This document shows, in pieces, positions 10,750 to 44,225 of a DNA stretch of 47,910 nt (position 1 is the first letter of the stretch; each line of letters starts with the position of its first letter). The notes under the pieces were generated by a model that was not told the origin of the DNA, searched no databases, and saw only the letters and a list, made by a program, of their open reading frames with translations. Source of the stretch: a bacterium (lineage in GTDB: Bacteria; Bacteroidota; Ignavibacteria; UBA10030); the NCBI GenBank assembly GCA_007280275.1, contig QYQB01000043.1, positions 1 to 47,910 on the forward strand, given 5' to 3'. A program made the translations under genes and the position numbers.

Positions 10750-10797
10750 TTCTAATCTTTGAGAATCCCATTCCCGCCGCGTTCCCAATAGTGAGCA
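10750..10797. promoter_or_regulatory. Putative paired enhancer (UAS) sites for the sigma54 activator
   Basis: TTCTAA-TCTT-TGAGAA (10750-10765) and TTCCCA-ATAG-TGAGCA (10782-10797), 32 bp apart, 118/86 bp upstream of a sigma54 site. Confidence 0.6.
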
Positions 10798-10867
10798 AAT
10801 GTACATTCCCCTTTCAATTCTGTTGGCCATTTCTGCGAAAAACTCGCACTTCACCTTTTTTTCCGGT

Positions 10868-10883
10868 TGGCACGCTCCTTGCA
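10868..10883 (+). promoter_or_regulatory. Sigma54 (-24/-12) promoter
   Basis: TGGCAC-GCTCC-TTGCA, an exact match to TGGCAC-N5-TTGCW. Confidence 0.85.
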
Positions 10884-10954
10884 CTTTCGCAACGCAGGAT
10901 AAAGCATCATCCTAGCACCGTGGTTGTTACCCGAATAGTCAACAGGAGGACACA

Positions 10955-11215
10955 ATGGAGCGAGCTAGAATGCAATCGTCAGGATCGTCAGAAGGGCTGG
11001 TTGCGGGTAATCTGAAAGATTCCGTACGCACGTATGAACGTGCATTGATCATCGACTCGTTGCGAGTCAATGGTAATGACAAGCGCAAAGTATCCAAACT
11101 GCTTGGAATCAGTCTCTCGTCGTTGTACCGGAAGCTGCGTGAGCTTTCGATCGAAGATTTGGAAGAAGGTCACGAAGGCGAGCACGCAACTGAGTTCACT
11201 TCTGCCATGAGTTAA
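10955..11215 (+). CDS. Stand-alone Fis-type HTH protein resembling the C-terminal domain of the adjacent activator
   Basis: RBS AGGAGG; LKDSVRTYERALI...LLGISLSSLYRKLREL aligns with LRDAVKAFERTYI...ALGVSLSSLYRKMEEL of 9312-10679. Confidence 0.85.
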   Translation: MERARMQSSGSSEGLVAGNLKDSVRTYERALIIDSLRVNGNDKRKVSKLLGISLSSLYRKLRELSIEDLEEGHEGEHATEFTSAMS

Positions 11216-11300
11216 GAGTCAGCTGTTCGATTGAGTGATGCGCCGTTGTGCAAGGGGAAAGTTGCAGGCGCATCACGAGTGCAATGGAAGGAGCAGAGCT

Positions 11301-11500
11301 ATGAAACCGGGCTGGTGGGTTTGCCGGAATTCTTGCTGCGATCGCTGTAGGGGGAACCTTGTTGTATCTTCGTCATTTTCGGGGGGATGATCTGGAAGAC
11401 TTTCATTTCGTTGATGACGATAGTGCATTGAAGAACTTTTGAGCGTTCCCGCCTGAGTCGCCAGCAGATGAATTTGATGGCGTGAACTTTATTTCTGATT
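11301..11500 (+). pseudogene. Possible disrupted small single-TM protein gene
   Basis: RBS AAGGAG then ATG 11301 (MKPGWWV); removing one T at 11320-11322 joins it to AGILAAIAVGGTLLYLRHFRGDDLEDF...; in-frame TGA at 11440, then AFPPESPADEFDGVNFI. Confidence 0.4.
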
Positions 11501-11621
11501 CCCGGAATTCACCTCGCCCCAGGGAGGGGCGAGGGTTTGAAATCGAGAATCAGTTCGGGCTCCTGCAATCTTGCGCAGGAGAGGAGAACATATTCACGAA
11601 GCAGGGGAAGAACAGAAGTCT

Positions 11622-11678
11622 GCCCACAGGTGTGCCACGCATTCGCTTGAGAGCATTGCCGCCTGTGGGCTTTTTTTT
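11622..11678 (+). terminator. Rho-independent terminator
   Basis: gcccacaggtg / cgcctgtgggc stem followed by T8. Confidence 0.7.
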
Positions 11679-11821
11679 CCAGATCGCCGGAGGAGCTCTC
11701 GCTTGCGCTATCCCATGTGCACGTGCTCCGGCAATGTTTCTGACCCCGTTCGAATTGGCGATTTTCGATCCTGAATGATGGTATTCGACGAACATTAACC
11801 GGAGTCCCGAAGCGAGGATCT

Positions 11822-12271
11822 ATGGAAGCGAGCAAGAATCAACTGGCAGAGCACATGGCGGACCTTACCTACGAGCTTCTGGAGAACTGCCAGATCAAGA
11901 TCGAGCGTACGGCCCACAAACTCAATCTCACCGTAGCCGAGTTCAAGCTGCTTCGCTCGATTCAAGACGGAGAGAAATTGTCAGCTGGGAGTCTCGCAAA
12001 GCGACTCGGGCTTTCGAGCAGCCGCATCACGAGGATCATCGATGGACTCGTAAAGAAAGAAATGGTCAGGAAGGATGCGGGAGGCAACGATCGCCGCGTG
12101 GTGGATGTTCAACTGACCCCCATCGGAGTGGATACGCGAAACCAGCTCAAGGATATGTACACAAGCGTTCATCGGGATATCATCGATCTCCTGCCTTCCG
12201 ATGCCGGTGAATCAGTCTTGCTCGCCATGGAAAAACTCCGCGAGGCAACACACGAGTGGGTTAAGCAGTAA
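11822..12271 (+). CDS. MarR-family transcriptional regulator
   Basis: 149 aa; LTVAEFKLL...LAKRLGLSSSRITRIIDGLVKKEMV...DRRVVDVQLTPIG winged-helix signature. Confidence 0.92.
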   Translation: MEASKNQLAEHMADLTYELLENCQIKIERTAHKLNLTVAEFKLLRSIQDGEKLSAGSLAKRLGLSSSRITRIIDGLVKKEMVRKDAGGNDRRVVDVQLTPIGVDTRNQLKDMYTSVHRDIIDLLPSDAGESVLLAMEKLREATHEWVKQ

Positions 12272-12597
12272 GCCGCAGTAAAACCGTTACAAGCGAGAGA
12301 TTCATTTTCCATCCACTTCGATCTGCCTATCTGTCTCATCTTCCCCTTTTCCATTTTCAACAACCTCCAAATGAGTACCGACTTGATTCGAGTTGGACTT
12401 GTCCACTCTTCTTCCGACTGCATGTAATTGCTTTATATCTGACAACTTTTCAGATGTCCTTTTTCTCAATTCTTACCATCGGAATGCCAAAATGCCGTTG
12501 GAGGCAAGTGTAATAATTGAGAATGTGGATCCGCCGGACATTGTCGCAAATCTCTCCACTTTCTGCAATTCTGACATAACATTGTACAAGAAATAGT

Positions 12598-12613
12598 AGG
12601 CACACTTCTTGAA
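12598..12613 (+). promoter_or_regulatory. Possible sigma54 promoter (-12 TTGA variant) for the first T9SS cytochrome
   Basis: AGGCAC-ACTTC-TTGAA; only half-site UAS matches upstream (e.g. TGAGAA 12518-12523). Confidence 0.35.
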
Positions 12614-12736
12614 ATCATTGAACGATCATCGCAGAAGTGGTGCGTCTTTGCTGAATTATTCAGCAGGTGCACAAAAGAAATGTGCAACATGTGTCAATGT
12701 TCCTACCATCCATTTTCAAATTGAAAGGGCTCAATC

Positions 12737-14917
12737 ATGAGGCGTTTGCTTTCTGTCTGTGTTCTGCTGCTTATGGTATGCCTTGCGTTTACAGACGCAT
12801 ATTCTCAAGCAGTGGACCTGAAGGTCGTGGCGATGTCTCCCGGTCTCCGGAGCAGCGGCTATCCGAGCTTCTCGTCTCCAGCTGCAGGTACGCCCAATTA
12901 TGTCTCCACGGGACTCAGGACCGTTGGTAAAGGCATGAAGGTGTACCTGAAGGCCGATACAGTCGGCTCAGGTGCGACAAAAGTAACAACTTATGCATGG
13001 ACATTTGTGTCCAAGCCGCCAGGATCCACGGCAGCGTTCAGCGATGCAGCAAAGGATTCCGTGACATTTATCCCGGACGTTACAGGTCAGTACATCGTTC
13101 AGGTTGCTGTAAACGGCGCCGCGAAGACTCACGTTGACACAATTACGGCCAGCACCTATCGCGGTATCACCACTTTGGTGCAGTCGTGCCCCTGTCATGC
13201 CGGCTCTGCCACCTTCCTGAATTCCTACAGCAACTGGAAGACCACGAAGCACGCAACGATCTTCGCGCGTGGGATGACTGGCCAGCTTGAGAATTCAGAA
13301 GGCACCCATTACAAAGGTGTGTACACGAAAAGTTGCTTCAAATGTCACACGACCGGATGGGAATCTCTGACGAACAACGGAAACTTTGGCTACCTCGCAA
13401 ACACAGGTGCCACAGCCACACCGCCAACGTCGTTTGACTCCACGTGGTACAAAGGTCTTCCTTTGGAAGGCGGCGACTACCTGATTCCGTTCCAGGATTC
13501 CACGCTCTACAAGAAGCTTTCACCTCAAATGCTGGCGGTTGGCAGCATAGGCTGCGAAAGCTGCCACGGCCCGGCAGATGACCATGCGACGACCGCCGAC
13601 AAGAAGAAGATCAGTGTTACGGCTGATGCGGGCGTCTGCAACCAGTGCCACGAATCTCCGAAGGGGCATTCGCTTGGATATTTCTGGAGAGGCTCGACAC
13701 ACTCCACCATGAAGACCAGTGCCGCTGAAGCGAGTCGCAATTCGTGCTGGCCATGTCATAACGGAACGGCGTTCATTTCGTTCACGAATGCATGGGCAGC
13801 CGGACGAAAGACGACATCTGCTGATTCAGCGAAAGTTGATCCAACTTTTCAATCGATATCGTGCTCAGTCTGCCACGATACACATGGCAGTTCGAACGAA
13901 CACCTTCTCCGCTACACAAAGATCGATACACTTATCAACGGGTACAAAGTACCCGCGGGTGTAGGTGGATTTGGTCAAATGTGCATGAACTGTCACCGCG
14001 CGCGTAACAACTCGGTGACCCAAGTGAAGGGTCAGATGGGAAAATTCGGCGACCGGTTCTATCCGCACTATAGTCCTCAAGCTGATATGTACCTCGGAAC
14101 CAATGCTTGGGAATTTGGACTCAAGCTTGAAGGACTGAATACGCACGGCGGACTGAAGAATGGCTGCGTTACATGTCATATGTCCGAACGGATGGTTGTG
14201 CCGAACTACACGAAGGTTCAATCTGATCACGGCATGTCGATGGCGGAGAATGGCGTTGACAAAGTCGAAGGATGCGTCGAGTGTCACGGTGCTATCAAGT
14301 CGTTCAAGGACATCAAAGCGTCATTCGACTACGATGGCGATGGCCAGGTCAAAAGTGCCGTTGAGGAAGTGGCTGGACTAATGGCAAAGCTGAAGGCCAA
14401 GTTACCTGTAGATGCGACAGGTGAGCCGGTCACGATGGCGGCGGATTCGATGCTCGTTAGGAACTTCGCTACCACGAACAAGGTGAGCTACTCCACGCTG
14501 ATCGCGTCGTTGTTCAACTACAATTATGTTTCTCACGACATGAGCCTGGGTATCCACAACACGAAGTACACAGTGGCGATCCTTCGGGCCTCACTCGGAT
14601 TGGTGACCGGCGTCGAAATGGATCCATTGCCGATTCCCAAAACGTTCGAGCTGAGCCAAAACTATCCGAACCCCTTCAATCCGACGACCGAAATCCGCTT
14701 CGACATTCCGAAGTCATCGAGCGTCAAGGTGGTGGTCTATGATATCATGGGCCGGGTGGTCAGGACGCTGGTCGATCAGAAGATGGAAGCCGGTTCACAC
14801 CGGATTTCATGGAATGGTCGCGATCTGGCTGGCAACACTGTCTCCAGCGGGGTTTACTTCTATCACATCAGTGCTGACGGATTCGCAGCCACGAAGAAGA
14901 TGACCTTGATGAAGTAG
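12737..14917 (+). CDS. Secreted multiheme cytochrome c (8 CxxCH + 1 CxCH) with N-terminal Ig/PKD-like domain and T9SS type-A/FlgD-like C-terminal sorting domain
   Basis: Signal peptide AYS-Q; CPCH, CFKCH, CESCH, CNQCH, CWPCH, CSVCH, CMNCH, CVTCH, CVECH; DMSLGIHNTKY helix; tail FELSQNYPNPFNP...SGVYFY...KKMTLMK. Confidence 0.9.
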   Translation: MRRLLSVCVLLLMVCLAFTDAYSQAVDLKVVAMSPGLRSSGYPSFSSPAAGTPNYVSTGLRTVGKGMKVYLKADTVGSGATKVTTYAWTFVSKPPGSTAAFSDAAKDSVTFIPDVTGQYIVQVAVNGAAKTHVDTITASTYRGITTLVQSCPCHAGSATFLNSYSNWKTTKHATIFARGMTGQLENSEGTHYKGVYTKSCFKCHTTGWESLTNNGNFGYLANTGATATPPTSFDSTWYKGLPLEGGDYLIPFQDSTLYKKLSPQMLAVGSIGCESCHGPADDHATTADKKKISVTADAGVCNQCHESPKGHSLGYFWRGSTHSTMKTSAAEASRNSCWPCHNGTAFISFTNAWAAGRKTTSADSAKVDPTFQSISCSVCHDTHGSSNEHLLRYTKIDTLINGYKVPAGVGGFGQMCMNCHRARNNSVTQVKGQMGKFGDRFYPHYSPQADMYLGTNAWEFGLKLEGLNTHGGLKNGCVTCHMSERMVVPNYTKVQSDHGMSMAENGVDKVEGCVECHGAIKSFKDIKASFDYDGDGQVKSAVEEVAGLMAKLKAKLPVDATGEPVTMAADSMLVRNFATTNKVSYSTLIASLFNYNYVSHDMSLGIHNTKYTVAILRASLGLVTGVEMDPLPIPKTFELSQNYPNPFNPTTEIRFDIPKSSSVKVVVYDIMGRVVRTLVDQKMEAGSHRISWNGRDLAGNTVSSGVYFYHISADGFAATKKMTLMK

Positions 14918-14941
14918 CTCTGTTCCAAGCACCAGTCTTAG

Positions 14942-14978
14942 AAAAGAAGCCCTGGCAGATCTGTCAGGGCTTCTTTTT
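14942..14978. terminator. Bidirectional-type intrinsic terminator
   Basis: aaaagaagccctggcag / ctgtcagggcttctttt inverted repeat. Confidence 0.85.
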
Positions 14979-15214
14979 GTTCTTCAGATCTGCCACCTTG
15001 AACCACGATCCTTCACTGACCCGCATCCAGTCCTGTTTCCTTCGCACTTACACTGGTTTCACGAAACCGTTCTTAGACTTGTAGAAATTTGCAGCGACGC
15101 AGACATAAAGAGAATTCTTACACAATGCTACAAGGATGCGGGCCATGATGTTGTGCATCTCAACACATATGTCCCATTCCCCTTGTTTCATTGGGGAAAA
15201 GCGAACTATTCTTC

Positions 15215-15262
15215 TTGTCAGAAGTTGGAATGAATGCGAACTCAAGTTGGCAATGATAGGAA
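15215..15262. promoter_or_regulatory. Putative paired UAS sites (degenerate)
   Basis: TTGTCA-GAAG-TTGGAA (15215-15230) and TTGGCA-ATGA-TAGGAA (15247-15262), 32 bp apart, 130/98 bp upstream of a sigma54 site. Confidence 0.45.
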
Positions 15263-15274
15263 ACAACAGCCCTT

Positions 15275-15295
15275 TAATTGCTTGATGTTTGTCAA
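15275..15295. promoter_or_regulatory. Overlapping IHF-like site and FNR/Crp-like palindrome
   Basis: Minus strand CATCAA-GCAA-TTA (15275-15287) resembles WATCAA-N4-TTR; TTGAT-GTTT-GTCAA (15282-15295) resembles TTGAT-N4-ATCAA. Confidence 0.4.
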
Positions 15296-15344
15296 TTTTC
15301 GTCAATTCTGGCACTATCTGGGGGGTTCCAATTTGTAGCCTTTG

Positions 15345-15360
15345 CGGCATAGGAATTGCG
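15345..15360 (+). promoter_or_regulatory. Sigma54 promoter for T9SS cytochromes 2 and 3
   Basis: CGGCAT-AGGAA-TTGCG (GG-N10-GC). Confidence 0.6.
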
Positions 15361-15493
15361 GGTTTTCAAGTTCAACAACTTATGGAGCTTTTCACATTGA
15401 TGTCTTATTATCACGTATTCGGCCCCGCAAAACAGAGCTTATTCGGCAACCTGATTTCTCAATGACGCAGTGCACACCTTTGAGGGAGGTACC

Positions 15494-18397
15494 ATGAAGA
15501 GATTTCTACTTGGCTTTATTGTTCTGGCAGCATTGATCTGCATCCTCGCTTTGCCCGTTTTGGCACAGATCCAGACGGCAAAGATCTCCGTGGTTAGTGT
15601 CCCGGATCGTTTCAAGGCTGCAAATAAGAACCAATCAACGACCGGCCTGAAATCAGTTGGCGTTGGAAGCCGTGTTGTGCTGGCCCCCATCGTATTCTCA
15701 GGCAACGGTGGAAAGTACGCAGACACGCTTCTCACGGTCACGAGTGCGACGTGGACTCTGAAGAGCCCGTACGGCGCGACAAAGACTATCCAGGACACGG
15801 CTGCCGGTTTGAATGGCAAGATTGTCTATTTCGTCCCCGACACAGTGGGCGACTGGACCGTGACGATGACGGCAACGACTGCGAAGGGTGCTGCATCGCA
15901 AGTGACAACGACAATCGTAGCAGCCAAGTTCATCGGCGCTGGAATCACGATGCAGGCGAACCAGAACGTTCCGAATGGTTGCGCGTGCCATCTTGTGAAC
16001 ACAACCAATTTTACCGATTGGTCAAAGTCGAACCATGCGACGGCTGTGAAGCGCAAGCTCAACGACGCGGCCGGTCACTTCAGCTTCAGCTGCTTCTCCT
16101 GCCACTCCGCTGGGTATGATGGACTGACCTCCAGCGGCAACAACGGATTTGATGATGTGGCAGCGGCAGAGAAATTCACAACGGTTTCGAAAAATGCTCC
16201 TGGAGTATTTGACTCTCTGACGACCCTTTATCCGAAGTCGATGTCGTTGACCGGGATCCAGTGCGAGAATTGCCATGGTCCAGCGGGTCAGCACACTGCA
16301 GCCTTCCCAGTAGCGGGCAACAACAAGTTGGATGAGACGCTCTCATCAAACGTATGCGCCCCGTGTCACTTCTCCTCTGATCGCCATGGAATCGGATATG
16401 CATGGTCAGCTTCTGCGCACGCCATTTCGACGACAGAAGGAATCCAGACGCAATACACCGATCGTCCGATTTGCGCACGCTGCCATACCGCCCAGGGCTA
16501 CATCAATGAAGTAGTCGGTAGTAAAGCCCAGCCGGTTCCGGCTACTGGCGATCTGGTGTATGCCAATCCAATGCCCATCGGATGCTCTACCTGCCATGAT
16601 CCGCACAATGGCTCAAATGAGATGCAACTGCGTGCAAAGACGATCGGCGATGCTTGCGTCGGTTGCCACATTACGCGCATGAGTAGCCGTGGTTTGCACA
16701 CTGCACATCAAGGTTCGATGTTGATCGGAACAAACACGGCCTCATTCAGTCTGGATGTCGCGAATGCCTACCTGCTCGCTCCGTCAGGCTCGGTCCAGCA
16801 GAACAATGCCGCAGTTGGTACGTGGGGGGGATGGGAACTCCCTGGCTACACATATGAGAACTCCTCGCACAGCGATATCAAGGAGCGATGCGTCGCGTGC
16901 CATATGGCGAGTTCTCCTTCATACCTTGCTGCATCTGCATCGAACTTCACAAAAGCCGACACAATGCTGACCAAACTTGGGCGGCATACGTTCAAGGTCG
17001 CGTATGAGAATATCGTCGGCCAGGACACGACGACGATTCTGAATCCTACCGGCTGCGACGAGTGCCACGGAACGGTGTCCATCGAATTTGTCGAGTCAAC
17101 CCAGGCGAAGACCGATAAACTACTTGCAAGCCTGTATGCTGCGTTGCCAAAACGGGATACGATCATCAGTGCAATCAATCCCACCGGTACGCCGATCCTC
17201 TTCACCGACACAATCACGTGGCAAAACAATTCAAAGCTTCCTCTGACCTCGAAACGCAAGCTTTCGGTCGTTGAGCGCGCGGCTGCCTACAATCTGCAGT
17301 TCGTTCGTAACGATGGTAGCGGTGGCGTGCACAACTACAACTATTCAAAGGGCCTTCTCAACTCCTCGCTCGAGCAGGTGAAGCTCGGCGCCGGAGCGTC
17401 CTCAATCTCCTCGATCAAAGACGTGCCGGTTGATAACGGCAAGAAGGTCCAGGTTGTCTGGTCCGCCTTCCCGGCAGAGACGTATAGCTTCAACCAGGTG
17501 ATCAATTATGGAGTGTGGAGAAAAGATCCGATTCTGCCCAGCCTCAATTCGGTTAAGAAGGCCGGCAGTTTCACGGAAATGATGAGCACAACGAGCCAGG
17601 GCGGCCAGGTTGTTCTGGGCGGCAGCGTTTGGTCATACGTTGGCTCAGTCCCTGCATCTGGAATGGCACAGTATTCATTCCTGGCTTCGACACTCTTCGA
17701 TTCCACGAAAACCTCAGGTCAGCGGTGGACAGTTTTCTATGTTGCCGGCTACACCAAGGACAACCAGGTCATGTTTTCGAGCCAGCCCGACAGCGGATAC
17801 TCGGTGGACAACCTCGCTCCGGCTGTTCCATCAGGCTTGAATGCCTCGTTCTCGAAGAACACCGTTACATTGAAGTGGACGGCGAATGTTGAGAGCGACG
17901 TGTATCAGTACGCGATCTATCGTGGAACAACATCAACCTTCAACCCGGCGGGTACCACGCCTTTGGCGAAGGTTCGTACACCTCTCTATCAGGATCCGGT
18001 TTCTCAGAGCGGTGTGACGTACTACTACAAGGTCTCTGCACTCGATATCGCGGGTAACGAGAGCGGATACACCAGCGTGAGTGTGCTCACAGATGTCCAG
18101 AACGGCAGCGGTCTGCCGACGGAATTCGCGTTGAACCAGAACTTCCCGAATCCGTTCAACCCGACGACAGAAATCGCATTCTCGGTGCCGAAACAAACCC
18201 CTGTCAAGGTCGTGATCTACGGCTTGTCCGGAGAGGTTGTTGCGACAGTCGTGAATCAGACGATGTCTGCCGGCAATTACCGTGTCACGTGGAATGGCAA
18301 AACCGACGACGGTCGTGCTGTGGCAAGCGGTGTCTACTTCTACCATTTGCAGGCGGACGGATTCACTGCAACGAAGAAAATGACATTGCTGAAGTAA
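15494..18397 (+). CDS. Secreted multiheme cytochrome c (8 CxxCH + 1 CxCH) with extra beta/FN3-like domains and T9SS C-terminal sorting domain
   Basis: ATG 15494 after GGAGGT; signal peptide VLA-Q; CACH, CFSCH, CENCH, CAPCH, CARCH, CSTCH, CVGCH, CVACH, CDECH; DGSGGVHNYNY; FN3-like DNLAPAVPSGL...YYYKVSALDIAGNES; tail FALNQNFPNPFNP...KKMTLLK. Confidence 0.9.
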   Translation: MKRFLLGFIVLAALICILALPVLAQIQTAKISVVSVPDRFKAANKNQSTTGLKSVGVGSRVVLAPIVFSGNGGKYADTLLTVTSATWTLKSPYGATKTIQDTAAGLNGKIVYFVPDTVGDWTVTMTATTAKGAASQVTTTIVAAKFIGAGITMQANQNVPNGCACHLVNTTNFTDWSKSNHATAVKRKLNDAAGHFSFSCFSCHSAGYDGLTSSGNNGFDDVAAAEKFTTVSKNAPGVFDSLTTLYPKSMSLTGIQCENCHGPAGQHTAAFPVAGNNKLDETLSSNVCAPCHFSSDRHGIGYAWSASAHAISTTEGIQTQYTDRPICARCHTAQGYINEVVGSKAQPVPATGDLVYANPMPIGCSTCHDPHNGSNEMQLRAKTIGDACVGCHITRMSSRGLHTAHQGSMLIGTNTASFSLDVANAYLLAPSGSVQQNNAAVGTWGGWELPGYTYENSSHSDIKERCVACHMASSPSYLAASASNFTKADTMLTKLGRHTFKVAYENIVGQDTTTILNPTGCDECHGTVSIEFVESTQAKTDKLLASLYAALPKRDTIISAINPTGTPILFTDTITWQNNSKLPLTSKRKLSVVERAAAYNLQFVRNDGSGGVHNYNYSKGLLNSSLEQVKLGAGASSISSIKDVPVDNGKKVQVVWSAFPAETYSFNQVINYGVWRKDPILPSLNSVKKAGSFTEMMSTTSQGGQVVLGGSVWSYVGSVPASGMAQYSFLASTLFDSTKTSGQRWTVFYVAGYTKDNQVMFSSQPDSGYSVDNLAPAVPSGLNASFSKNTVTLKWTANVESDVYQYAIYRGTTSTFNPAGTTPLAKVRTPLYQDPVSQSGVTYYYKVSALDIAGNESGYTSVSVLTDVQNGSGLPTEFALNQNFPNPFNPTTEIAFSVPKQTPVKVVIYGLSGEVVATVVNQTMSAGNYRVTWNGKTDDGRAVASGVYFYHLQADGFTATKKMTLLK

Positions 18398-18407
18398 TTC
18401 GATCACG

Positions 18408-18440
18408 GATGCCCCGCCCGAACCGGGCGGGGCGTCTCTT
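18408..18440 (+). terminator. Strong GC hairpin with weak U-tract between the paralogs (attenuator or mRNA-stabilising stem)
   Basis: gatgccccgcccg-aac-cgggcggggcgtc followed by tctt. Confidence 0.55.
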
Positions 18441-18496
18441 ACTCACAAAGGAATTTTGTGTCGCACCTCAAATCGAATACCCAAGAGGGAGGTTGT

Positions 18497-21388: not shown

Positions 21389-21401
21389 TTCCTGATTTAA
21401 C

Positions 21402-21451
21402 AAGGCAGGGTCTCAGACAGGAAAAAGTCCGAGATCCTGCCTTTGTATTTT
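21402..21451 (+). terminator. Intrinsic terminator after the third T9SS cytochrome
   Basis: aaggcagggtctc / gagatcctgcctt stem followed by tgtatttt. Confidence 0.7.
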
Positions 21452-21668: not shown

Positions 21669-21694
21669 CGATCTACTCCGGGAAAGTGAGATCT

Positions 21695-25135: not shown

Positions 25136-25139
25136 GATC

Positions 25140-30433: not shown

Positions 30434-30434
30434 C

Positions 30435-35502: not shown

Positions 35503-35544
35503 CTCCCTTTGTTCCACATCGATAACTAATCCAGGAGGATCTCT

Positions 35545-36078: not shown

Positions 36079-36124
36079 CAATTTCGCAGTGTGCTTGGAT
36101 TGGTGCTTCACGACGGTACAATGG

Positions 36125-36160
36125 AAGCGGCGCTGTGGCGCAAAGCGCAGCGCCGTTTAT
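36125..36160 (+). terminator. Hairpin/possible terminator after the c554-like gene
   Basis: aagcggcgctg / cagcgccgttt stem followed by a short T-tract. Confidence 0.55.
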
Positions 36161-36191
36161 CCCCTCTGTTCTCTCGTAAGGGGAAGTTCCA

Positions 36192-36593
36192 ATGGACAGG
36201 AATGCGGTTCAGAAATCCTTCGAAGTGTGGCTGTTCGTTGCAGTCGCCGCATCAATGAACGGCATGTTCCGGAGTCTGTTTCTCGTGCCGAGGATAGGAG
36301 AGTATACTTCACACGTGCTGAGCGTGCTGATGTTGATGATTGTCGTTCTCCTCTCCTCATCTGTATTGGTGAACAGGCTCCTGAAGGAGTACGCCAACAG
36401 CGATTTGTTCCTGATCGGATCCCTGTGGGCGGTACTGACGTTGAGTGTCGACTTTGTCTTTGAGCTCTATGTTCTTGAAATACCCTGGAGAGCGATTCTA
36501 TCCGACTACAATGTGTCTTCCGGACGGATCTGGATCCTGGTGCTGACCACGGAGATCATCGGACCTTGGTTTATGGCTTCGAACAATCGTTGA
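36192..36593 (+). CDS. Small 4-TM membrane protein of unknown function
   Basis: 133 aa with four hydrophobic segments; fills the gap on the operon strand. Confidence 0.7.
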   Translation: MDRNAVQKSFEVWLFVAVAASMNGMFRSLFLVPRIGEYTSHVLSVLMLMIVVLLSSSVLVNRLLKEYANSDLFLIGSLWAVLTLSVDFVFELYVLEIPWRAILSDYNVSSGRIWILVLTTEIIGPWFMASNNR

Positions 36594-36708
36594 CCAGAGG
36601 GCAGACGCTCGTTTTCAGCACGAATGTATTGACACCACTGTTTTCAGCGACCTTGTTATTTGAACTTGTGACGTTGTTTTGATCAACCATACTCTTACTA
36701 GAGCGATT

Positions 36709-38022
36709 ATGAAGAAACTCCTGGTTGTCGCCTGTCTCATCTTCCTTTCGGTCTCCGGTACTCTTGCACAACGGTTGCAGGCCCGGTTTGTCACCTCCGC
36801 ATATGCCTGGGAGAGACAGGACACGATTGGAACCTCCTCGCAGCATCTTTTCGGCTATCAGACGATACAGCTTTCCATCGCCGGTGAAAAGCTCTCGTTC
36901 AATACCTACCTTCAGGGCTTCAATGATTTTGCCGGCCCCCTCAAGAATGAGGGAATCCTGAGAGTCTATAACCTCTATTTCAAAGCCTCGAATATCGCTC
37001 AGCTTGCAGATGTGAGCCTGGGGCGTCAGGCGGTCTTCGCGGGCGTGGGCACCGGGACGATCGATGGAGGGCTTGTGTCGCTCAAGTTCCTTGATTCCCG
37101 GCTGAAAGTCGTCGGATACTACGGCACGCTCCCGTCAGAGCGCTACAAGATGGCGTTGATCAGCAATGCCGGCGACAACTACATGACAGGCGGCCAAATG
37201 GTTGCCTCGCCCGCCGACTTTGCCCAGATCTCGGTGAGCTATATGCAGAAGCATCTCAGGCCCGAGACATACATCGGCATCCGCCGGGATTCGCTCTTCA
37301 ATCCGTACCCGATCGAGATCAAGCCCTCGGCAGCGGCAGAAGAATACATCAGCGGCGATGTCAATCTCGAATACAACGACGTCATTTCGGGATATGGCCG
37401 GTATGATTATGATCTCCTTTCGGAGAAAAACTCCCGGATGCAGCTCTTCACGAGGGTGAAGCCGTTCGGCTCCCTGAACGTCAAAGCGCTCGAACCATTG
37501 AGCCTGACAGGAGAGTACGTCCAGCGCGATCCGCGGTTGCTCTATAATTCGATTTTCTCAGTCTTCACATTCAACTCCCTGAAGGAATATGAGGTGGGAG
37601 TTGAGTATGCGATCGGCACAGCCTGGCAGGTGTTCGCGAAGTATGGAGCGGTCTCCTACAACGACGCAACGCAGAACCAAATTACAGTCGGCGTGAATGG
37701 CGAACATGTCTCATTAAGCGTCACGAGAGATAACGGGGATGGCGGAGAACTGAGCGCTGCGTCCTTGAACCTTGGATATCCGCTGCTCGAGAACAAGCTG
37801 ACACCGACACTTCTCCTTGGCTATGCGCATTACAAACTGAGCGAGTACTCCTCAAAGCTGGATGATGCACTCAGCGTTGCTGTGGGGGCTGTCTATCGCC
37901 CCTCCCGGCTCTTCAGTGTCGATGCACAGGCGCAGTGGATCCAGAACAAGATCTACAGCAGCGACATGCGTTTCTTTGTGAGGGTAAACTATCTTCTCAG
38001 CCACCAACTTGAAATCTTCTAG
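36709..38022 (+). CDS. Putative outer-membrane beta-barrel (porin of a porin-cytochrome conduit)
   Basis: Signal peptide TLA-Q; alternating amphipathic aromatic-rich strands (VSLGRQ, YGRYDYD, VGAVYRP, FFVRVNY); terminal Phe; no heme motifs; directly upstream of two multiheme genes. Confidence 0.75.
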   Translation: MKKLLVVACLIFLSVSGTLAQRLQARFVTSAYAWERQDTIGTSSQHLFGYQTIQLSIAGEKLSFNTYLQGFNDFAGPLKNEGILRVYNLYFKASNIAQLADVSLGRQAVFAGVGTGTIDGGLVSLKFLDSRLKVVGYYGTLPSERYKMALISNAGDNYMTGGQMVASPADFAQISVSYMQKHLRPETYIGIRRDSLFNPYPIEIKPSAAAEEYISGDVNLEYNDVISGYGRYDYDLLSEKNSRMQLFTRVKPFGSLNVKALEPLSLTGEYVQRDPRLLYNSIFSVFTFNSLKEYEVGVEYAIGTAWQVFAKYGAVSYNDATQNQITVGVNGEHVSLSVTRDNGDGGELSAASLNLGYPLLENKLTPTLLLGYAHYKLSEYSSKLDDALSVAVGAVYRPSRLFSVDAQAQWIQNKIYSSDMRFFVRVNYLLSHQLEIF

Positions 38023-38029
38023 AAACCTT

Positions 38030-39262
38030 ATGCCAAACCCCACATCACACAGTATCGTTCGGCGGGTCCCCAACGGGTTCTTTTCTGTCGCTGTCTGCGT
38101 GCTGGCCCTGACACTGGTGGCGTTTTCCAGTGTCAACGCCCAGTCCAAGGACCGACCGACCACAATCAAATTCTCTCACCGCTTTCACGTCAGGGATGCG
38201 GGTGCTGCCTGTGCGGATTGCCATACGGCCGCGCCAACAAGCAAACTCGCTTCGGACACGCTGCTCGCAACGCACGAAAACTGCAAGTCGTGTCACGAAG
38301 AGCAACTGAGCTCGAAGTGCGCTTTCTGCCATACGAGCGAGGACCCGACGACGTACACGACCACCCCGTTGCCCAAGCGCAACCTTGTGTTCTCGCACCA
38401 GCAACACGTCGAGGCGCAAAAGGTCGAGTGTGAAAAATGCCACACTGGTGTGGACAAGGCGGAAATCGGTGTCTCGGTTGGGATCCCACCGATGCCAACG
38501 TGCAACACCTGCCATAACGACATCAAGGCATCGAATGCGTGTGAAGGATGCCACGTGGACATGGCTGCACTCCGGCCCAGAGAGCACGATCGCACAGAAT
38601 TCGTCCGTGAGCACAAAATGGCTGCCCGCATTTCGACGGCGACATGCGCATCATGCCATACGCAGGAATCGTGTGCGGACTGTCATAACGGTTCGGATCT
38701 TCTGAAGGTCAGTGTCCCCGGGAAGGATCTCATGTCACTCCGCTCGCCGCGGCTCACTGCCAACGATCGCGGTCAAGGGATGCGAACGGCGAAGGTACAC
38801 GATCTGAACTTCAAGTTTACCCACGGTCTCGCGGTTGAAGGCAAAACTTCCGACTGCCAGACGTGTCATAACAAGCAAACCTTCTGTGCAACGTGTCACG
38901 CAGCAGGAGGGAATGTCAACCAGGGAAAATTCCAGCCAGAGTCTCACCGAAAGTCGGGGTTTGTGACGATTGGAGTCGGATCCGGCGGTGGTGTGCATGC
39001 TAAACTGGCCAGAAGGGATATCGAAAGCTGTGCATCCTGCCACGACACGCAGGGCGCTGATCCGGCTTGCATCACGTGTCATATGGATTCGGATGGAATC
39101 AAAGGGACGAACGCCAGGACGCATGAACGGGGCTTCATGGCCGGAAACCATGGCACCTGGCATACGGATCCCGGTGCGACGTGCTATGTCTGTCATACGG
39201 ATGCCAATGCGCGTGCCGGGGGAATTAAAGGACAGAAGTTCTGTGGCTATTGTCATAAATGA
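38030..39262 (+). CDS. Periplasmic 14-heme cytochrome c (c3/c7-like modules), porin-associated
   Basis: Signal peptide VNA-Q; FSHRFH and FSHQQH c7-type starts; 14 CxxCH. Confidence 0.88.
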   Translation: MPNPTSHSIVRRVPNGFFSVAVCVLALTLVAFSSVNAQSKDRPTTIKFSHRFHVRDAGAACADCHTAAPTSKLASDTLLATHENCKSCHEEQLSSKCAFCHTSEDPTTYTTTPLPKRNLVFSHQQHVEAQKVECEKCHTGVDKAEIGVSVGIPPMPTCNTCHNDIKASNACEGCHVDMAALRPREHDRTEFVREHKMAARISTATCASCHTQESCADCHNGSDLLKVSVPGKDLMSLRSPRLTANDRGQGMRTAKVHDLNFKFTHGLAVEGKTSDCQTCHNKQTFCATCHAAGGNVNQGKFQPESHRKSGFVTIGVGSGGGVHAKLARRDIESCASCHDTQGADPACITCHMDSDGIKGTNARTHERGFMAGNHGTWHTDPGATCYVCHTDANARAGGIKGQKFCGYCHK

Positions 39263-39272
39263 GCGGAAACCT

Positions 39273-40358
39273 ATGAGAACATATCATATCCCTACGATCG
39301 TACTACTGACGGCGCTGGTCGTCATTGCGTCACTGCTGAATTCCTGCAGTGATCTCAAGAGTGTGCAGGACCTGCCGACGGCATCTTCCGGCGCGCTCCA
39401 GGTCCATGATGCCGGCTGGCTTGATACGGCGGCGTCCAATTTCCACGGAACGATCCTGAAACAGGCGCAGTATAATCTTAGTGAATGTGCGACCTGCCAT
39501 TCGAAGCAGTTCACCGGAGGGACAAGCGGCGTGGCATGCTCCAAGTGCCACCAGTACTATCCGCATCCGGCCGGATTCAGCGCCTCGACCAGCCACCCGC
39601 AATACCTTTACAATCAGAACTATCCTCTGGGCCAGTGCAAAGCATGTCATGGCGCCACATATGCCGGAGGCGGCAACGCAAACCTCTCCTGCATGAAATC
39701 GGGATGCCATGTCGATGCGAACAATGTTTCAAAATCACCTGAGGCTTGCAACGCCTGTCATGGCAACTTCAAGGCCGCTGCAAATGACTTGCCCTCCGCA
39801 GCTCCGCCGAAGGACATTCTGGGGAACACTGCGACGACCGCACGCGGTGTCGGCGCTCACCAGATACACTTGGTCAGCGGAGCCGTCGGCAAGACGGTAA
39901 AATGTCAAGAATGTCATACGATCCCAACGCAACTCTCCTCACCTGGACACCTTGGAACGCTGCCGGCAGAAGTTGTGTTCAATGATACGCTTGCGCGGTT
40001 GACGACTGGCGGCGGAACCTCTGTGCCCAAACCCTCCTACGATCCATCAACGCTCAAGTGCAGCAATACCTTTTGTCACGGCAACTGGAAGGTAAGGAAA
40101 GCTACGTCCACCTCCCAGTTTGTCTTCGCGGACTCAGTTATGGTCGGTGCCAATGATTCTCCAGCCTGGACGGGTGGATCGGCAGCGGCCACGTGCGGTA
40201 CCTGCCACGGAATACCGCCGAAGGGTCACCTCGCACTCGCTGTTTCCTCCTGCGGGACATGTCACGTCGGTGTTGTTGACAACAACGGGCACATCGTCGA
40301 CAAGACGAAACACGGCAACGGGAAAATCAACGTGTTCGGTCAGGAATACGCATTCTGA
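39273..40358 (+). CDS. Lipoprotein multiheme cytochrome (7 CxxCH + 2 Cx4CH; Geobacter CxxxxCH...CxxCH-type domain)
   Basis: Lipobox LLNS-C; CATCH, CSKCH, CKACH, CMKSGCH, CNACH, CQECH, CSNTFCHGN..PAW..CGTCHG.PP, CGTCH...HGNG. Confidence 0.85.
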   Translation: MRTYHIPTIVLLTALVVIASLLNSCSDLKSVQDLPTASSGALQVHDAGWLDTAASNFHGTILKQAQYNLSECATCHSKQFTGGTSGVACSKCHQYYPHPAGFSASTSHPQYLYNQNYPLGQCKACHGATYAGGGNANLSCMKSGCHVDANNVSKSPEACNACHGNFKAAANDLPSAAPPKDILGNTATTARGVGAHQIHLVSGAVGKTVKCQECHTIPTQLSSPGHLGTLPAEVVFNDTLARLTTGGGTSVPKPSYDPSTLKCSNTFCHGNWKVRKATSTSQFVFADSVMVGANDSPAWTGGSAAATCGTCHGIPPKGHLALAVSSCGTCHVGVVDNNGHIVDKTKHGNGKINVFGQEYAF

Positions 40359-40424
40359 CGCGTTGAGAGGTTCTCGGTAAAGTATTTATGTAACCATTAA
40401 CGGGAAGGGAGTGGCTGAGGGAAT

Positions 40425-42719
40425 ATGGTGGGGACTCTTATTGTCTGGATAGCATGTGCCGCAGCCTCGTTGTCGGCTTATGCGTACTACCGAAGTACTA
40501 TAACGGAGAAGAAATTCCTGGCCCTCGCGCGCAACAGCTACGGGGTCATGGCAGTGGGCGTTCTGGCCGCATCGGTCGCCCTGATGGTGTACATCCTGCG
40601 TCACCATTTCGAGTACGACTATGTTTGGGCGTACAGCTCCAGGTCACTTCCGCTTGAACTGCTGATCACGACCTTCTGGGCCGGCCAGGAAGGAAGCTTC
40701 CTCCTCTGGGCGCTTTGTGGATCGATCATCGGGATCATTCTGATGGTCTATACGCGGCGGAAGGAGATCGAAGCGGAGACGATGACGATCTTTGCAATCG
40801 TCCAGGCATTCCTCCTGTTGTTGTTGGTCGTGAAGTCGCCCTTCCGGTTTGTCTGGGACGCACACGCGGGTGAGGCGCCAGTAGGCATAGTTCCACCGGA
40901 CGGACGCGGACTGAATCCCTTGCTGCAAAACTTCTGGATGATCATTCATCCGCCTATCCTGTTTGCCGGTTTCGCGATGATGGCGGTTCCCTTTGTGTTC
41001 GCCATGGCTGCTCTCTGGCGCAAAACCTATCTTGATTGGATTCCCAGCGCCTTGCCCTGGGTCATCGCGGGGACTATCGCCCTCGGCATGGGGATCATGT
41101 TGGGCGGATACTGGGCCTACGGTGTTCTCGGTTGGGGAGGCTGGTGGGGATGGGACCCTGTTGAAAACTCCTCTCTTATTCCATGGATCATCGGTGTGAT
41201 CCTTATCCATACGATGCTCGTGCAACGCAAAACAGGCGGGCTTGCGAAGACGAACTTCTTCCTTGGAATCTGCACCTACGTGCTGGTCGTCTACAGCACA
41301 TTCCTGACGCGCAGCGGCATCCTTGGCTCTTCTTCAGTTCACTCGTTCGTCGATCCGGGAGCACTGGCGTATACGCTTCTCGTCATTTGGATCGGTGGGT
41401 CGCTCGTCATCGGATTCGGCATGCTGATCAGACGCTGGGGCGATCTCAAAGCGTTTTCCAACCGTTCTCCGCTCTTCACAAGAGAGTCCCTTCTCGCGAT
41501 CAGTTCGGTCGTCATGGGGGCGAGTACGCTGGTGATCTTGTTTGGGACAAGCTGGCCGATAGTTTCTCACGCATCCCTCGAGCCGGCATTTTATGACAAG
41601 ACCAACCTCCCGATTGCCATCGCCCTGGGGTTCCTGCTTGCACTCAGCTTGCTTGTCCAATGGAAAGAAGAATCCTCACGCCAGATTCTCCGGAATGCGG
41701 CGGTCTCGTTTCTGGCCGCACTTGCAGTGACGGTAGTTCTCGTGATCTCCGGCCTTGACGATATTCTGATCGGGTTGTTCGCTTTCACATCTCTCTTCGC
41801 CTTTTTTGTCAACGTTATCCGTCTCTACCGTCTCGCGAAAGAGAACGTGCGCTACACGGGGGGAGCCATGGCCCACATCGGGCTTGCGGTTCTCTTCCTC
41901 GGAATCATCGGATCAGGACGATATGGAGAAAAGAAGACCGCATCGCTTCCGATCAACGAACCCAAGGAGGTCCTTGGGTACCAACTGACGTACACAGGGT
42001 CGAGCCCAACGCCGGATGGGAAGTGGAAGTTTTCCGTCGCCGTGGCCAGGGATGGCTCTCGATTCATCCTGGACCCGGTCATGTTTGAGAGTGAGTACAA
42101 CAACAGTTTGATGCGAAATCCGGATTACGCATCGTTCCTCACGCGGGATTTCTACATCGAACCGGTATCGCTCGAGGAAGTCGAACCTGCGGCAGCAACA
42201 GGGGGTGGAAATGTCCTGCAGCTGAAAAATGGGGAGACCAAGACCATCGGCGACGCGACGGTCAAGTTCGTTCGGTTCGACATGGCGCACAAGGGAATGG
42301 AATCGATGGCTGCAAGCGCCGGGTTTACCGTGGGTGCAGTGCTCGAGGTGAAGCACGGTACCTCGACGGAACAACTCACACCTGTTACGGTATACAAAGA
42401 CTCCCTGCCCCCTCAGATGCGGATTGCCCGGACCAAAGATGGGGCGATCGGTTTCGAACTCCTCAGAATGAACGTTGATTCTCAGACAAAGGCCTCGGCC
42501 ATTGAACTGATTGTGACGGGTTTGGGAGCTCACGCTCCTGTAGCATCTCAGAAATCGCAGCTCCTGGTCATCGAAGCGAGCGTCAAGCCGTTTATGAGCC
42601 TGGTGTGGGCCGGGGCCGCGCTGATGATGCTGGGGTTGGGCATCTCTCTTTCTACGAAATTCAACGGCAATGCGCTCAGGCAATCGGATGCTGAAAGGAA
42701 TAAACGCGGGATTTCATGA
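40425..42719 (+). CDS. ccmF: Cytochrome c heme lyase CcmF/NrfE (System I)
   Basis: WAGQEGS, GRGLNPLLQNFWMIIHPP, WGGWWGWDPVEN (WWD domain), FLTRSG..SSVHSF, AHIG. Confidence 0.93.
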   Translation: MVGTLIVWIACAAASLSAYAYYRSTITEKKFLALARNSYGVMAVGVLAASVALMVYILRHHFEYDYVWAYSSRSLPLELLITTFWAGQEGSFLLWALCGSIIGIILMVYTRRKEIEAETMTIFAIVQAFLLLLLVVKSPFRFVWDAHAGEAPVGIVPPDGRGLNPLLQNFWMIIHPPILFAGFAMMAVPFVFAMAALWRKTYLDWIPSALPWVIAGTIALGMGIMLGGYWAYGVLGWGGWWGWDPVENSSLIPWIIGVILIHTMLVQRKTGGLAKTNFFLGICTYVLVVYSTFLTRSGILGSSSVHSFVDPGALAYTLLVIWIGGSLVIGFGMLIRRWGDLKAFSNRSPLFTRESLLAISSVVMGASTLVILFGTSWPIVSHASLEPAFYDKTNLPIAIALGFLLALSLLVQWKEESSRQILRNAAVSFLAALAVTVVLVISGLDDILIGLFAFTSLFAFFVNVIRLYRLAKENVRYTGGAMAHIGLAVLFLGIIGSGRYGEKKTASLPINEPKEVLGYQLTYTGSSPTPDGKWKFSVAVARDGSRFILDPVMFESEYNNSLMRNPDYASFLTRDFYIEPVSLEEVEPAAATGGGNVLQLKNGETKTIGDATVKFVRFDMAHKGMESMAASAGFTVGAVLEVKHGTSTEQLTPVTVYKDSLPPQMRIARTKDGAIGFELLRMNVDSQTKASAIELIVTGLGAHAPVASQKSQLLVIEASVKPFMSLVWAGAALMMLGLGISLSTKFNGNALRQSDAERNKRGIS

Positions 42720-42771
42720 AAAGGAAAAGAGGTATCTGCTGAACGAAAGATAGTAACAAGACGTTTTCCTA

Positions 42772-42925
42772 ACCACCGATGGCACACAGATGGTCACCGA
42801 TAAGAACAAGAAGATAGACCTCTTGTACGAAGAAATAACTTATGAAGTCATTGGTGCCGCGGCTGCAAAAGATTCGGCGCATTCTATGATTCAACATCAG
42901 TGTAGATCGGTGTGTCTTCGGTGGT
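42772..42925 (+). pseudogene. Internally deleted GxxExxY-family gene remnant flanked by 30-bp imperfect inverted repeats
   Basis: ATG 42790 gives MVTDKNKKIDLLYEEITYEVIGAA (GxxExxY-like N-terminus), then +1 frame LQKIRRIL*; IRs at 42772-42801 and 42896-42925. Confidence 0.6.
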
Positions 42926-43017
42926 AGATCAACCGAGTAGTTTTGGAAAATGATTGAATCCAGAGATTTCAGGAAAAGCAGGCAGCGAACAACGCTTCTG
43001 TCCTCTGAAAACGACAC

Positions 43018-43057
43018 AATGCCCGCAGCCTTGACCTGGTCGCGGGCATTTTCATTT
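43018..43057. terminator. Terminator between convergent units
   Basis: aatgcccgc / gcgggcatt stem followed by ttcattt. Confidence 0.65.
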
Positions 43058-43102
43058 CATCAGGAGGGGAGGATTGTTCAGCCGCTCTCACTGTGCGGGA
43101 TA

Positions 43103-43810
43103 TCAGGCAGGGTCTTTCCCGAGTGATGGCACTTCGGGGATCGCGAAGAGTTTCAGGCCTCGCAGCTCTTCGTTGTACATCTCGTCCCGGAAATTCATGA
43201 GTCTTCGGAGAATATCCGACATCCTGTCGACGTTGATTTGAATCTCTTTCAGCTGCACATTGAGTTGATGGTCGATTTTCTCCGGCGCAGAGTGTACCTT
43301 GTTCAGCGTCAAATCGATGATGGCCATCGGATTGTTCAACTCGTGATGTACTGTGCGAATAATTGTCGTAATGGCGTCAATACGTTGGCGGGCAATCTCA
43401 TTCCGTCCTGCTTCTTTCTGGTACTCCCGTTTTTCCAACCCGGCGAGGATTGCTTTCTCCAGGACGTAGGGGTTGGCGAGCTCCTCTTTTGTGAGGTAGT
43501 CATCTGCACCGAGCTTGAAAACGTCGTGGACAATCCGGTAGTCCTGGCTGGCGGAAATCACGATAACGACAGTTTCCTGATCGCGGGTCCGAAGAGCTCT
43601 CAGGAAGTCACCTCCCGTGATGCCCGGAAGGTAGAAATCCAGAAGAATGACGTCGAATGCCCGGACCTTCTTTAGGGATTCCAGAGCGTCTTCTGCTGAG
43701 TTGACGATCTTGACCTGGTAGTTGTATTCCAGTGAGCGCTTGAGAATGTGGTGAAACGACTGTGCAACTGCAGGCTCGTCTTCAACTATCAAGATATTCC
43801 GTGTTACCAT
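43103..43810 (-). CDS. Receiver domain fused to a HisKA (DHp) domain, lacking the ATPase domain
   Basis: ATG 43810 after GGAGGG; ILIVEDE, LLDFYLP, VISA, DDYLTKE; H-box TVHHELNNPM; ends without N/G boxes. Confidence 0.85.
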   Translation of the reverse strand: MVTRNILIVEDEPAVAQSFHHILKRSLEYNYQVKIVNSAEDALESLKKVRAFDVILLDFYLPGITGGDFLRALRTRDQETVVIVISASQDYRIVHDVFKLGADDYLTKEELANPYVLEKAILAGLEKREYQKEAGRNEIARQRIDAITTIIRTVHHELNNPMAIIDLTLNKVHSAPEKIDHQLNVQLKEIQINVDRMSDILRRLMNFRDEMYNEELRGLKLFAIPEVPSLGKDPA

Positions 43811-44102
43811 ACAACCCTCCAGGAGAATGATCGGCCCTGATCCATACGGAAGCTGAACTCCTGAATACTGCAATCTTCCGGATTCTGGGGAAGGGATACG
43901 TTTCTCAAAGATAGCAGTATCTTCTGAAAGATGCATGACTCGAAAGAAGTTCCTTCTGCCGTTGAATCTTTGCTCTTTGCGCGACTTGGACGGCTTTGTT
44001 CCAGTGTTTCATGCTGAGATCGTTGCAAGACCACCGGTATGGACAGAGTCGGAATTATGGGAAGGATTCGGAGTACAACAGCCTCAACTCGCGCTTGGAA
44101 TC

Positions 44103-44148
44103 TTTCCACGTTTGGGAAGCGGAGATTGCGCCTTCGCAAGCATGGGAA
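44103..44148. promoter_or_regulatory. Putative paired UAS sites upstream of ald
   Basis: TTTCCA-CGTT-TGGGAA (44103-44118) and TTCGCA-AGCA-TGGGAA (44133-44148), 30 bp apart, 107/77 bp upstream of a sigma54-like site. Confidence 0.55.
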
Positions 44149-44209
44149 AGCAATTCGTCTTACGACGTGGAAATCCCCGGATGCCAGCGTGAGGTTCGTG
44201 ATGGTTGAT

Positions 44210-44225
44210 CGGCACGATTTTTGAC
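44210..44225 (+). promoter_or_regulatory. Sigma54-like promoter (-12 TTGA variant) for the ald operon
   Basis: CGGCAC-GATTT-TTGAC. Confidence 0.5.

Follow-up and report, generated by a model that had tools for sequence, protein, structure and literature searches.

Do the repeated palindromes ahead of four -24/-12 promoters in one Ignavibacteria contig belong to a single regulatory system, and if so, which protein binds them? The contig in question (QYQB01000043.1 of assembly GCA_007280275.1, contig C259 in our numbering; GTDB lineage UBA10030) was analysed over its whole length of 47,910 nucleotides, hereafter called the window. An earlier note on it had described four pairs of 16-bp palindromes resembling TTCNCA-N4-TGNGAA, each upstream of a sigma-54 motif, and had assigned the control of the whole island to a neighbouring sigma-54 activator. 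We consider it probable, from the sequence evidence given below, that this is the enhancer-type regulon of one two-component system, in which the local kinase and activator would act at the palindrome pairs and their sigma-54 promoters. The assembly (3.70 Mb in 338 contigs, 84% complete) has one rpoN gene (a single Sigma54_DBD match, 184 bits, on C313) and 17 full-length sigma-54 activators.

Paired palindromes ahead of sigma-54 promoters

All eight palindromes and all four -24/-12 motifs lie on the forward strand at the coordinates reported in the earlier note; we refer to the four arrangements as P1 to P4. At P1, two palindromes starting at 10750 and 10782 (enhancer 10750-10797; one mismatch each to TTCNCA-N4-TGNGAA) stand ahead of the promoter TGGCACGCTCCTTGCA (10868-10883), which is kept in relatives. 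The palindromes of P2 start at 15215 and 15247 (15215-15262; two mismatches each) and its promoter is CGGCATAGGAATTGCG (15345-15360). Those of P3 start at 22745 and 22775 (22745-22790; one and two mismatches), ahead of TGGCACGAGAGTTGCG (22862-22877), and those of P4 at 44103 and 44133 (44103-44148; one and none), ahead of the sigma-54-type promoter CGGCACGATTTTTGAC (44210-44225). Start-to-start spacing within the pairs is 32, 32, 30, and 30 bp from P1 to P4. The core GGCAC-N5-TTGC is exact at 10869 (P1) and 22863 (P3) and has one mismatch each at 15346 (P2, GGCAT, with GG and GC kept) and 44211 (P4, where the -12 element is TTGA instead of TTGC). P1 has in addition a third, weaker site at 10824 (10.8 bits), which overlaps a further palindrome, TGCGAA-N3-CTCGCA at 10834-10848; this part of the region (10824-10848, forward strand) is kept in close relatives. 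The consensus that we use for the site, TTCYCA-N4-TGRGAA, is a by-eye reading of orthologous modules together with a weight matrix built from the eight window sites.

Counted singly, the motifs are mildly enriched over background. Palindromes with up to two mismatches number 42 in the window against 28.4 ± 5.4 in shuffled sequence (1 of 100 shuffles reached 42), and sigma-54 cores with up to one mismatch number 22 against 12.6 ± 3.6, a count that none of 100 shuffles reached. The combination of the two is far beyond chance. We defined a module as two sites of at least 7.5 bits by the eight-site matrix, 29-33 bp apart, with a match to a sigma-54 regular expression within 160 bp downstream on the same strand. 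By this definition the 3.70-Mb genome, searched on both strands, contains exactly five modules, namely the four reported ones and one on contig C160. The four in the window compare with a mean of 0.003 and a maximum of one in 300 shuffled copies of it. Because the matrix was derived from the window sites, only the C160 module and the matches in other genomes count as independent evidence. Generic scans of 10600-30000 returned 14 sigma-70 promoter-like sites against 11.7 after shuffling, and 14 terminator-like sites against 18.7, the latter scan missing a long-loop hairpin at 11622-11678 that is described below. A scan of the entire window with Rfam at the gathering threshold gave no match.

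The geometry is that of upstream activator sites, that is, tandem dyads about three helical turns apart with the proximal one 75-99 bp from the GG of the promoter (87, 99, 88, 78, and 75 bp in the five modules). The earlier note had the offsets differ by roughly whole turns. For the n = 5 modules of this genome, the Rayleigh test with a period of 10.5 bp returned R = 0.79 and p = 0.036, which by itself is suggestive only. In the 15 orthologues of P1, the distance from the proximal site to the GG is 78, 86, 87, 95, 98 (eight loci), 99 (two loci), or 107 bp, with steps of mostly 9-11 bp. Distances mostly about one helical turn apart are what is expected if the sites must face the polymerase. The IHF-like sites that the same note had placed between enhancer and promoter at 15275 and 22807 did not hold up: they are only one-mismatch matches to WATCAANNNNTTR, at chance level and not conserved. 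The window has no exact match to the IHF consensus and 24 matches with up to one mismatch (27.8 ± 5.4 expected), and across genomes such a match falls in the enhancer-promoter gap of 4 of 48 modules (1.7 expected), not at orthologous positions. HU/IHF-family genes are present in 9/9 genus relatives and were not found in the present 84%-complete genome. An AT-rich block, TTGYYATTTGTTAAGG, between the P3 enhancer and promoter is kept in three of four relatives and degenerate in G004, and this block together with the HU/IHF genes of the relatives makes some bending aid possible.

The arrangement recurs in related genomes. The island is syntenic in four genus relatives (G004, G005, G006, and G008), in which a blind module scan returned orthologous modules only: P1, P3, and P4 in G005, all four in G006, and P1 to P3 in G004 and G008. 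For the latter two, P4 turned up on contigs other than that of the island. Taken by promoter, orthologous P2 pairs are present in G004, G006, and G008, the P3 module is kept in all four islands, and P4 is found in all ten genus genomes, its promoter CGGCAY-N5-TTGA included, as well as in G011 and G029; at the P4 counterpart of three more genera, one site alone precedes a sigma-54 motif by about 75 bp. The pair spacing of each promoter is identical among relatives (32, 32, 30, and 30 bp) and the promoter distance stays at 97-99 bp for P2, 88-89 bp for P3, and 76-79 bp for P4. In the alignments, the sites and the promoter are kept and the intervening and flanking sequence diverges. A full P1 module lies downstream of the activator orthologue in 15 of 20 loci; it was missed in L010, L011, L012, L019, and L020, the first four of which show by eye one palindrome and a promoter. 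The enhancer and -24/-12 layout is thus a genuine, evolutionarily conserved arrangement.

The regulon also extends past the island: the fifth module precedes a citrate synthase gene on C160, whose product scores 617 bits in NCBIfam (cut-off 505). The genus has two citrate synthase paralogues, and this is one of them. All nine citrate synthase loci of the genus (L112-L120, own genome included) have TGGCACG-N4-(A/G)TTGA(A/G) with a distal palindrome about 105-108 bp upstream, and both sites reach 7.5 bits in six of them; none of 21 further loci outside the genus has a module upstream of citrate synthase. Immediately past the citrate synthase promoter comes a third palindrome, with the high score of 16.5 bits (C160 at about 12380-12395 in the present genome, G000; locus L112). 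It is found at +36 from the promoter motif in four of the nine genus loci (L112, L113, L115, and L120), and three more have a site at +63 to +65, about 28 bp further. Such a position past the promoter suits a repressor. In G012 (C16) and G024 (C61), a distance of 17-22 kb separates citrate synthase from the activator orthologue on one contig, and in G012 (C16), G014 (C18), and G023 (C18) alanine dehydrogenase is 23-28 kb away from it, likewise on one contig, so that the metabolic targets are physically linked to the island in these other genera.

Sites of the same type occur elsewhere in the genome. On C264 (1932-2115, L142), a sigma-54 promoter with three conserved palindromes, spaced by 20 and 39 bp, precedes an operon of Iso_dh, HMGL-like, and CoA-transferase III genes, with an Rrf2 regulator in divergent orientation; the operon lies about 8 kb from a different, paralogous activator in relatives. 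The Iso_dh gene of L142 is split in two overlapping frames (2180-2650 and 2518-3300; region 2180-3300), which reflects a frameshift or an assembly error. The palindrome pair on C41 (3599-3645, L111; 31 bp apart) follows the gene of a paralogous activator and precedes one for a pyruvate:ferredoxin oxidoreductase-like protein; a sigma-54 motif was not found within 200 bp. A perfect palindrome of 20.4 bits on C223 (118-133, L143) lies 143 bp upstream of a sigma-54-like motif, in a region cut by the contig end, and precedes a hybrid kinase of 1534 amino acids (aa) with multiple PAS domains. C79 carries a pair 30 bp apart and C313 a pair within a long open reading frame, both without a sigma-54 motif, and a single site stands near a sigma-54-like motif on each of C133 and C24.

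The probable binder of the palindromes

Upstream of P1, on the same strand, lie the genes of a sensor histidine kinase (7873-9303; two PAS, HisKA, and HATPase_c domains by Pfam) and of a sigma-54 activator (9300-10679), the stop codon of the former overlapping the start of the latter. The activator is composed of REC, AAA+, and HTH_8 domains (Response_reg 114 bits, Sigma54_activat 233 bits, HTH_8 35 bits) and has a Walker A motif and the contact loop GSFTGA, which retains the F and T of GAFTGA but has S in place of A. In NCBIfam, the activator matches AtoC best (465 bits against a cut-off of 714) and the kinase AtoS (279 against 646), and the 25 activator matches listed of 116 are all below their cut-offs; the two proteins are therefore not orthologues of AtoC and AtoS, and the activator is not placed with NtrC or ZraR either. 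The recognition helix SLSSLYRK (SLSSLYRKMEE in the activator) is invariant in 20 of 20 orthologues, which matches the stability of the palindrome; the 16 further full-length activators that the genome encodes all lack it. The adjacency of P1 in 15 of 20 loci, the invariance of the helix, and its uniqueness in the genome all point to the local REC-AAA+-HTH_8 activator as the likely binder of the palindromes. The assignment made in the earlier note therefore has three supports, but its extension to the whole island is overstated: modules precede four transcription units, and none was found ahead of the kinase/activator operon, the MarR gene, or the cytochrome gene at 12737.

In the mechanism that we propose, the PAS kinase would, on a presumed signal, phosphorylate the adjoining activator, whose dimers would occupy the two 16-bp palindromes, 30 or 32 bp apart and with the proximal one 75-99 bp upstream of the -24 GG. 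The assembled ATPase would then contact the sigma-54 holoenzyme from the enhancer and open the promoter, transcription starting at the predicted -24/-12 sites. The putative targets are an 86-aa paralogue of the activator DNA-binding domain at P1, two secreted 8-haem cytochromes at P2, a presumably long respiratory operon at P3 whose first gene encodes a fused cytochrome c/b quinol oxidase-like protein, alanine dehydrogenase and a CoA-transferase at P4, and one of the two citrate synthase paralogues on C160. Such a regulon would couple extracellular-electron-transfer hardware to acetate and to entry into the tricarboxylic acid (TCA) cycle.

The 86-aa protein encoded past P1 (10955-11215, forward strand) consists of an HTH_8 domain only by Pfam and has 40% identity over 63 aa to the C-terminal end of the activator; it has no NCBIfam match at E <= 1e-5. 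Its helix, SLSSLYRKLRE, is invariant in 13 of 13 aligned orthologues. The gene is present in 14 of the 41 genomes searched, all of one family, and adjoins the activator orthologue in 13 of these 14; in the genome G007, the activator is on a contig fragment. It is followed on the forward strand by a hairpin and a U8 tail (11622-11678; -30.3 kcal/mol, z = -4.07), a likely intrinsic terminator, so that the P1 transcript would be short. The helix suggests that the 86-aa protein probably binds the same palindromes as the activator. A complex prediction of the homodimer (two copies, alignment of 13 rows) scored 0.25 against a mark of 0.42 and was used neither way. We tentatively consider a loop in which the activator induces from P1 this copy of its own DNA-binding domain, which would then compete for the same palindromes, including the site past the citrate synthase promoter; on present sequence grounds this is possible but doubtful.

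A rival explanation is that the palindromes are mainly operators of the 86-aa protein, acting alone or with the activator, and would serve as repressor or modulator sites instead of sites for activation by the ATPase. We regard this as unlikely. It draws on the correspondence between the SLSSLYRKLRE helix, kept in every aligned orthologue, and SLSSLYRKMEE of the activator, on the 16.5-bit palindrome past the citrate synthase promoter, a place ill suited to an activator site, and on the functional analogue HgtR, a repressor of gltA whose gene follows an activator gene and has an RpoN promoter (PMC2817479). However, the protein is limited to one family (14 of the 41 genomes), loci without its gene within 1.5 kb keep a palindrome and a sigma-54 promoter, with full modules in L014, L015, and L018, and a position 75-130 bp upstream at a fixed helical phase is the signature of activator sites and not of operators. 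It is distinctly unlikely that another of the genome's 16 sigma-54 activators is the binder and that P1 lies next to the local activator gene by coincidence. A genome with 17 full-length activators leaves room for it, as do the look-alike palindromes near the paralogous activator on C41 and before the C264 operon, but no sigma-54 motif lies within 200 bp of the C41 pair, the SLSSLYRK helix is in no other activator of the genome, and the P1 module travels with the local activator orthologue across genera.

A strict GC doublet at -12 is absent from P4, from the citrate synthase promoter, and from the further motif Px described below, which all have TTGA. If some of these TTGA motifs lay outside the sigma-54 class, the promoter there would be of sigma-70 type and regulated by a dimeric factor at the palindromes, and the missing C of the doublet and the resemblance of the P4 TTGAC to a -35 hexamer would be accounted for. 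We find this highly improbable, as the block CGGCACG-N4-TTGA, with the -24 half included, is kept in 10/10 genus genomes while its flanks vary, and the enhancer geometry equals that of P1 and P3, which both have perfect cores. The conservation of the TTGA variant and its alternation with TTGC at orthologous P1 and P2 promoters make membership in the sigma-54 class likely, if outside the strict consensus. That the sites are chance resemblances without function would agree with the modest enrichment of the single motifs in the window, but not with the module counts (four against 0.003 per shuffled window) or with a site sequence, spacing, and position kept in many genomes; this explanation is effectively refuted by conservation and its probability is close to nil.

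Several points weigh against a regulon of the local kinase and activator as we propose it. The P2 module was not found in the island scan of G005, and the P2 sites are weak (two mismatches each, 12-14 bits). TTGA replaces the canonical TTGC at -12 in P4, in the citrate synthase promoter, and in several orthologues. Most carriers of the activator orthologue outside the genus have no module upstream of citrate synthase or alanine dehydrogenase. The palindromes on C264, at another spacing and near a different activator in relatives, suggest that the motif may not be exclusive to one protein, and the recognition helix shared with the 86-aa paralogue means that the latter could be the main occupant of the sites. 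With an assembly 84% complete, further targets may exist. RNA data add little: 0.09 and 0.05 of the sampled words were present in two metatranscriptome runs, whose contigs cover parts of 10500-30400, and several of these cross both enhancer and promoter (e.g., 10651-11321 and 22705-22915), so they are uninformative on starts, strand, and level, and DNA carry-over is possible.

Genes of the island and the Px region

The window genes are nearly all on the forward strand. P2 is followed by a pair of 8-haem cytochromes c (15470-21388, forward strand; Pfam and CXXCH counts); both are about 975 aa long and carry a type IX secretion sorting tail. P3 is followed by a same-strand run of respiratory genes (22910-42719, forward strand), characterised by Pfam, haem counts, and gene gaps, the largest gap being 215 bp. 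The run encodes a 13-haem cytochrome c/cytochrome b fusion, a 19-haem cytochrome, a cytochrome b, a NapC-like protein, a module of 8-haem, 4Fe-4S, and NrfD proteins, Rieske/cytochrome b, more cytochromes, a porin-like barrel, and CcmF. In its first gene (22910-25135), a 13-haem cytochrome c is joined to a cytochrome b domain (Ni_hydr_CYTB), which corresponds to a one-polypeptide form of the CbcBA-like quinol oxidase layout. The three-gene module at 29693-32407 (8-haem cytochrome c, 4Fe-4S protein, and NrfD-type membrane subunit) lies between the NapC-like and Rieske genes. Its proteins have no match among those listed for the islands of G004, G005, G006, and G008, in which the NapC-like and Rieske genes are about 0.15-0.2 kb apart, and it looks like an insertion in the present genome. 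P4 is followed by genes for alanine dehydrogenase (NCBIfam alaDH, 398.1 bits against a cut-off of 391.85) and a CoA-transferase of the acetyl-CoA hydrolase/transferase family by Pfam (44334-46805, forward strand), with a divergent REC-HisKA gene ahead of them.

Among the other genes of the window are those of a MarR regulator, listed after the gene of the 86-aa protein, of a fibronectin-repeat protein of 1989 aa that carries a type IX secretion tail, and of a PDZ protein. An additional 8-haem cytochrome gene with a type IX sorting tail (12737-14917, forward strand) is preceded by the sigma-54-like motif Px, GGCACACTTCTTGA (12599-12612, forward strand; GG at 12599). Px is kept in all five genus islands examined, including where the cytochrome gene that follows it is missing. 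The elements upstream of Px (region 12463-12680) are 45 bp apart and one of them has a 3-bp spacer, unlike the layout of the pairs. A hairpin about 40 nt past Px (CTGCTGAAT..ATTCAGCAG) recurs in relatives with different sequence and could be a leader or a small RNA.

Relation to known systems and biological meaning

The architecture itself is that of the textbooks. At glnAp2 and atoDAEB of enteric bacteria, NtrC and AtoC bind two dyad sites about three turns apart and about 80-140 bp upstream of the -24/-12 promoter. The present system shares with these a REC-AAA+-HTH_8 regulator with a partner kinase and paired dyads upstream of -24/-12, and it resembles AtoC/AtoS further in the best NCBIfam matches of both proteins and in a target operon that includes a CoA-transferase. 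It differs in the site, here TTCYCA-N4-TGRGAA, in the loop, GSFTGA instead of GAFTGA, and in its putative targets, which are multihaem cytochromes, citrate synthase, and alanine dehydrogenase and not nitrogen or acetoacetate genes. We therefore see no new mechanism here; it is a known enhancer architecture, real and conserved, in a new setting.

Regulation of extracellular electron transfer has been described for Geobacter (10.1101/2021.04.15.440034; PMC2817479), and within the available text of these sources, two comparisons can be drawn. In Geobacter sulfurreducens, the sigma-54 activator BccR is needed to induce the bc-cytochrome operon cbcBA; in Bacteroidetes and Calditrichaeota, clusters that resemble cbcBA are described close to regulators of the BccR kind, with cbcB-cbcA fusions noted elsewhere (10.1101/2021.04.15.440034). 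Compared by description, both systems have a REC-AAA+-HTH sigma-54 activator adjoining an operon of b/c-type inner-membrane cytochromes for extracellular electron transfer. The activator here is co-oriented with its neighbour whereas BccR is divergent, and it appears to serve at least five promoters, including those of central-carbon genes; for BccR, the available text gives no layout of binding sites. By this analogy, BccR-cbcBA is the nearest functional precedent.

The second comparison is with HgtR, a predicted ribbon-helix-helix protein of Geobacter that regulates citrate synthase and other energy-metabolism genes (PMC2817479). Like the 86-aa protein, it is a small DNA-binding protein without a sensor domain, and its gene lies downstream of an activator gene, with an RpoN promoter, a monocistronic transcript, and a terminator. 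The resemblance is in logic only, and repression in the present system is hypothetical; homology of the 86-aa protein to HgtR was considered and dropped, given the ribbon-helix-helix prediction. Our literature search returned no paper tying Ignavibacteria to sigma-54 or to enhancer-binding proteins, and the main text of a 2025 comparative sigma-54 regulon paper, whose supplements could hold lists, has no mention of Ignavibacteria, cytochromes, or citrate synthase.

Fis has been proposed to derive from the DNA-binding domain of NtrC. The 86-aa protein is likewise a stand-alone HTH_8 domain related to the C-terminal domain of an activator, but it is lineage-restricted (14 of 41 genomes) and lies beside its parent activator, which apparently controls it. 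If the competition considered above were real, it would be an independent and recent repeat of the event proposed for Fis, and a convergent, non-homologous counterpart of the Geobacter circuit from activator to HgtR to gltA. It would provide a built-in delayed negative feedback or a pulse that links cytochrome expression to TCA-cycle entry, and it makes the locus a candidate example of feedback by a paralogue with a DNA-binding domain only.

In summary, the finding offers a regulon readable from sequence in uncultured Ignavibacteria of sediment, peat, and groundwater. In-vitro work can start from defined DNA sites and two small proteins, and the putatively co-regulated genes form a marker set for reading metatranscriptomes. 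The prediction for the organism is that one PAS kinase/activator pair would activate the cytochromes, outer as well as inner, and with them citrate synthase, a CoA-transferase, and alanine dehydrogenase.

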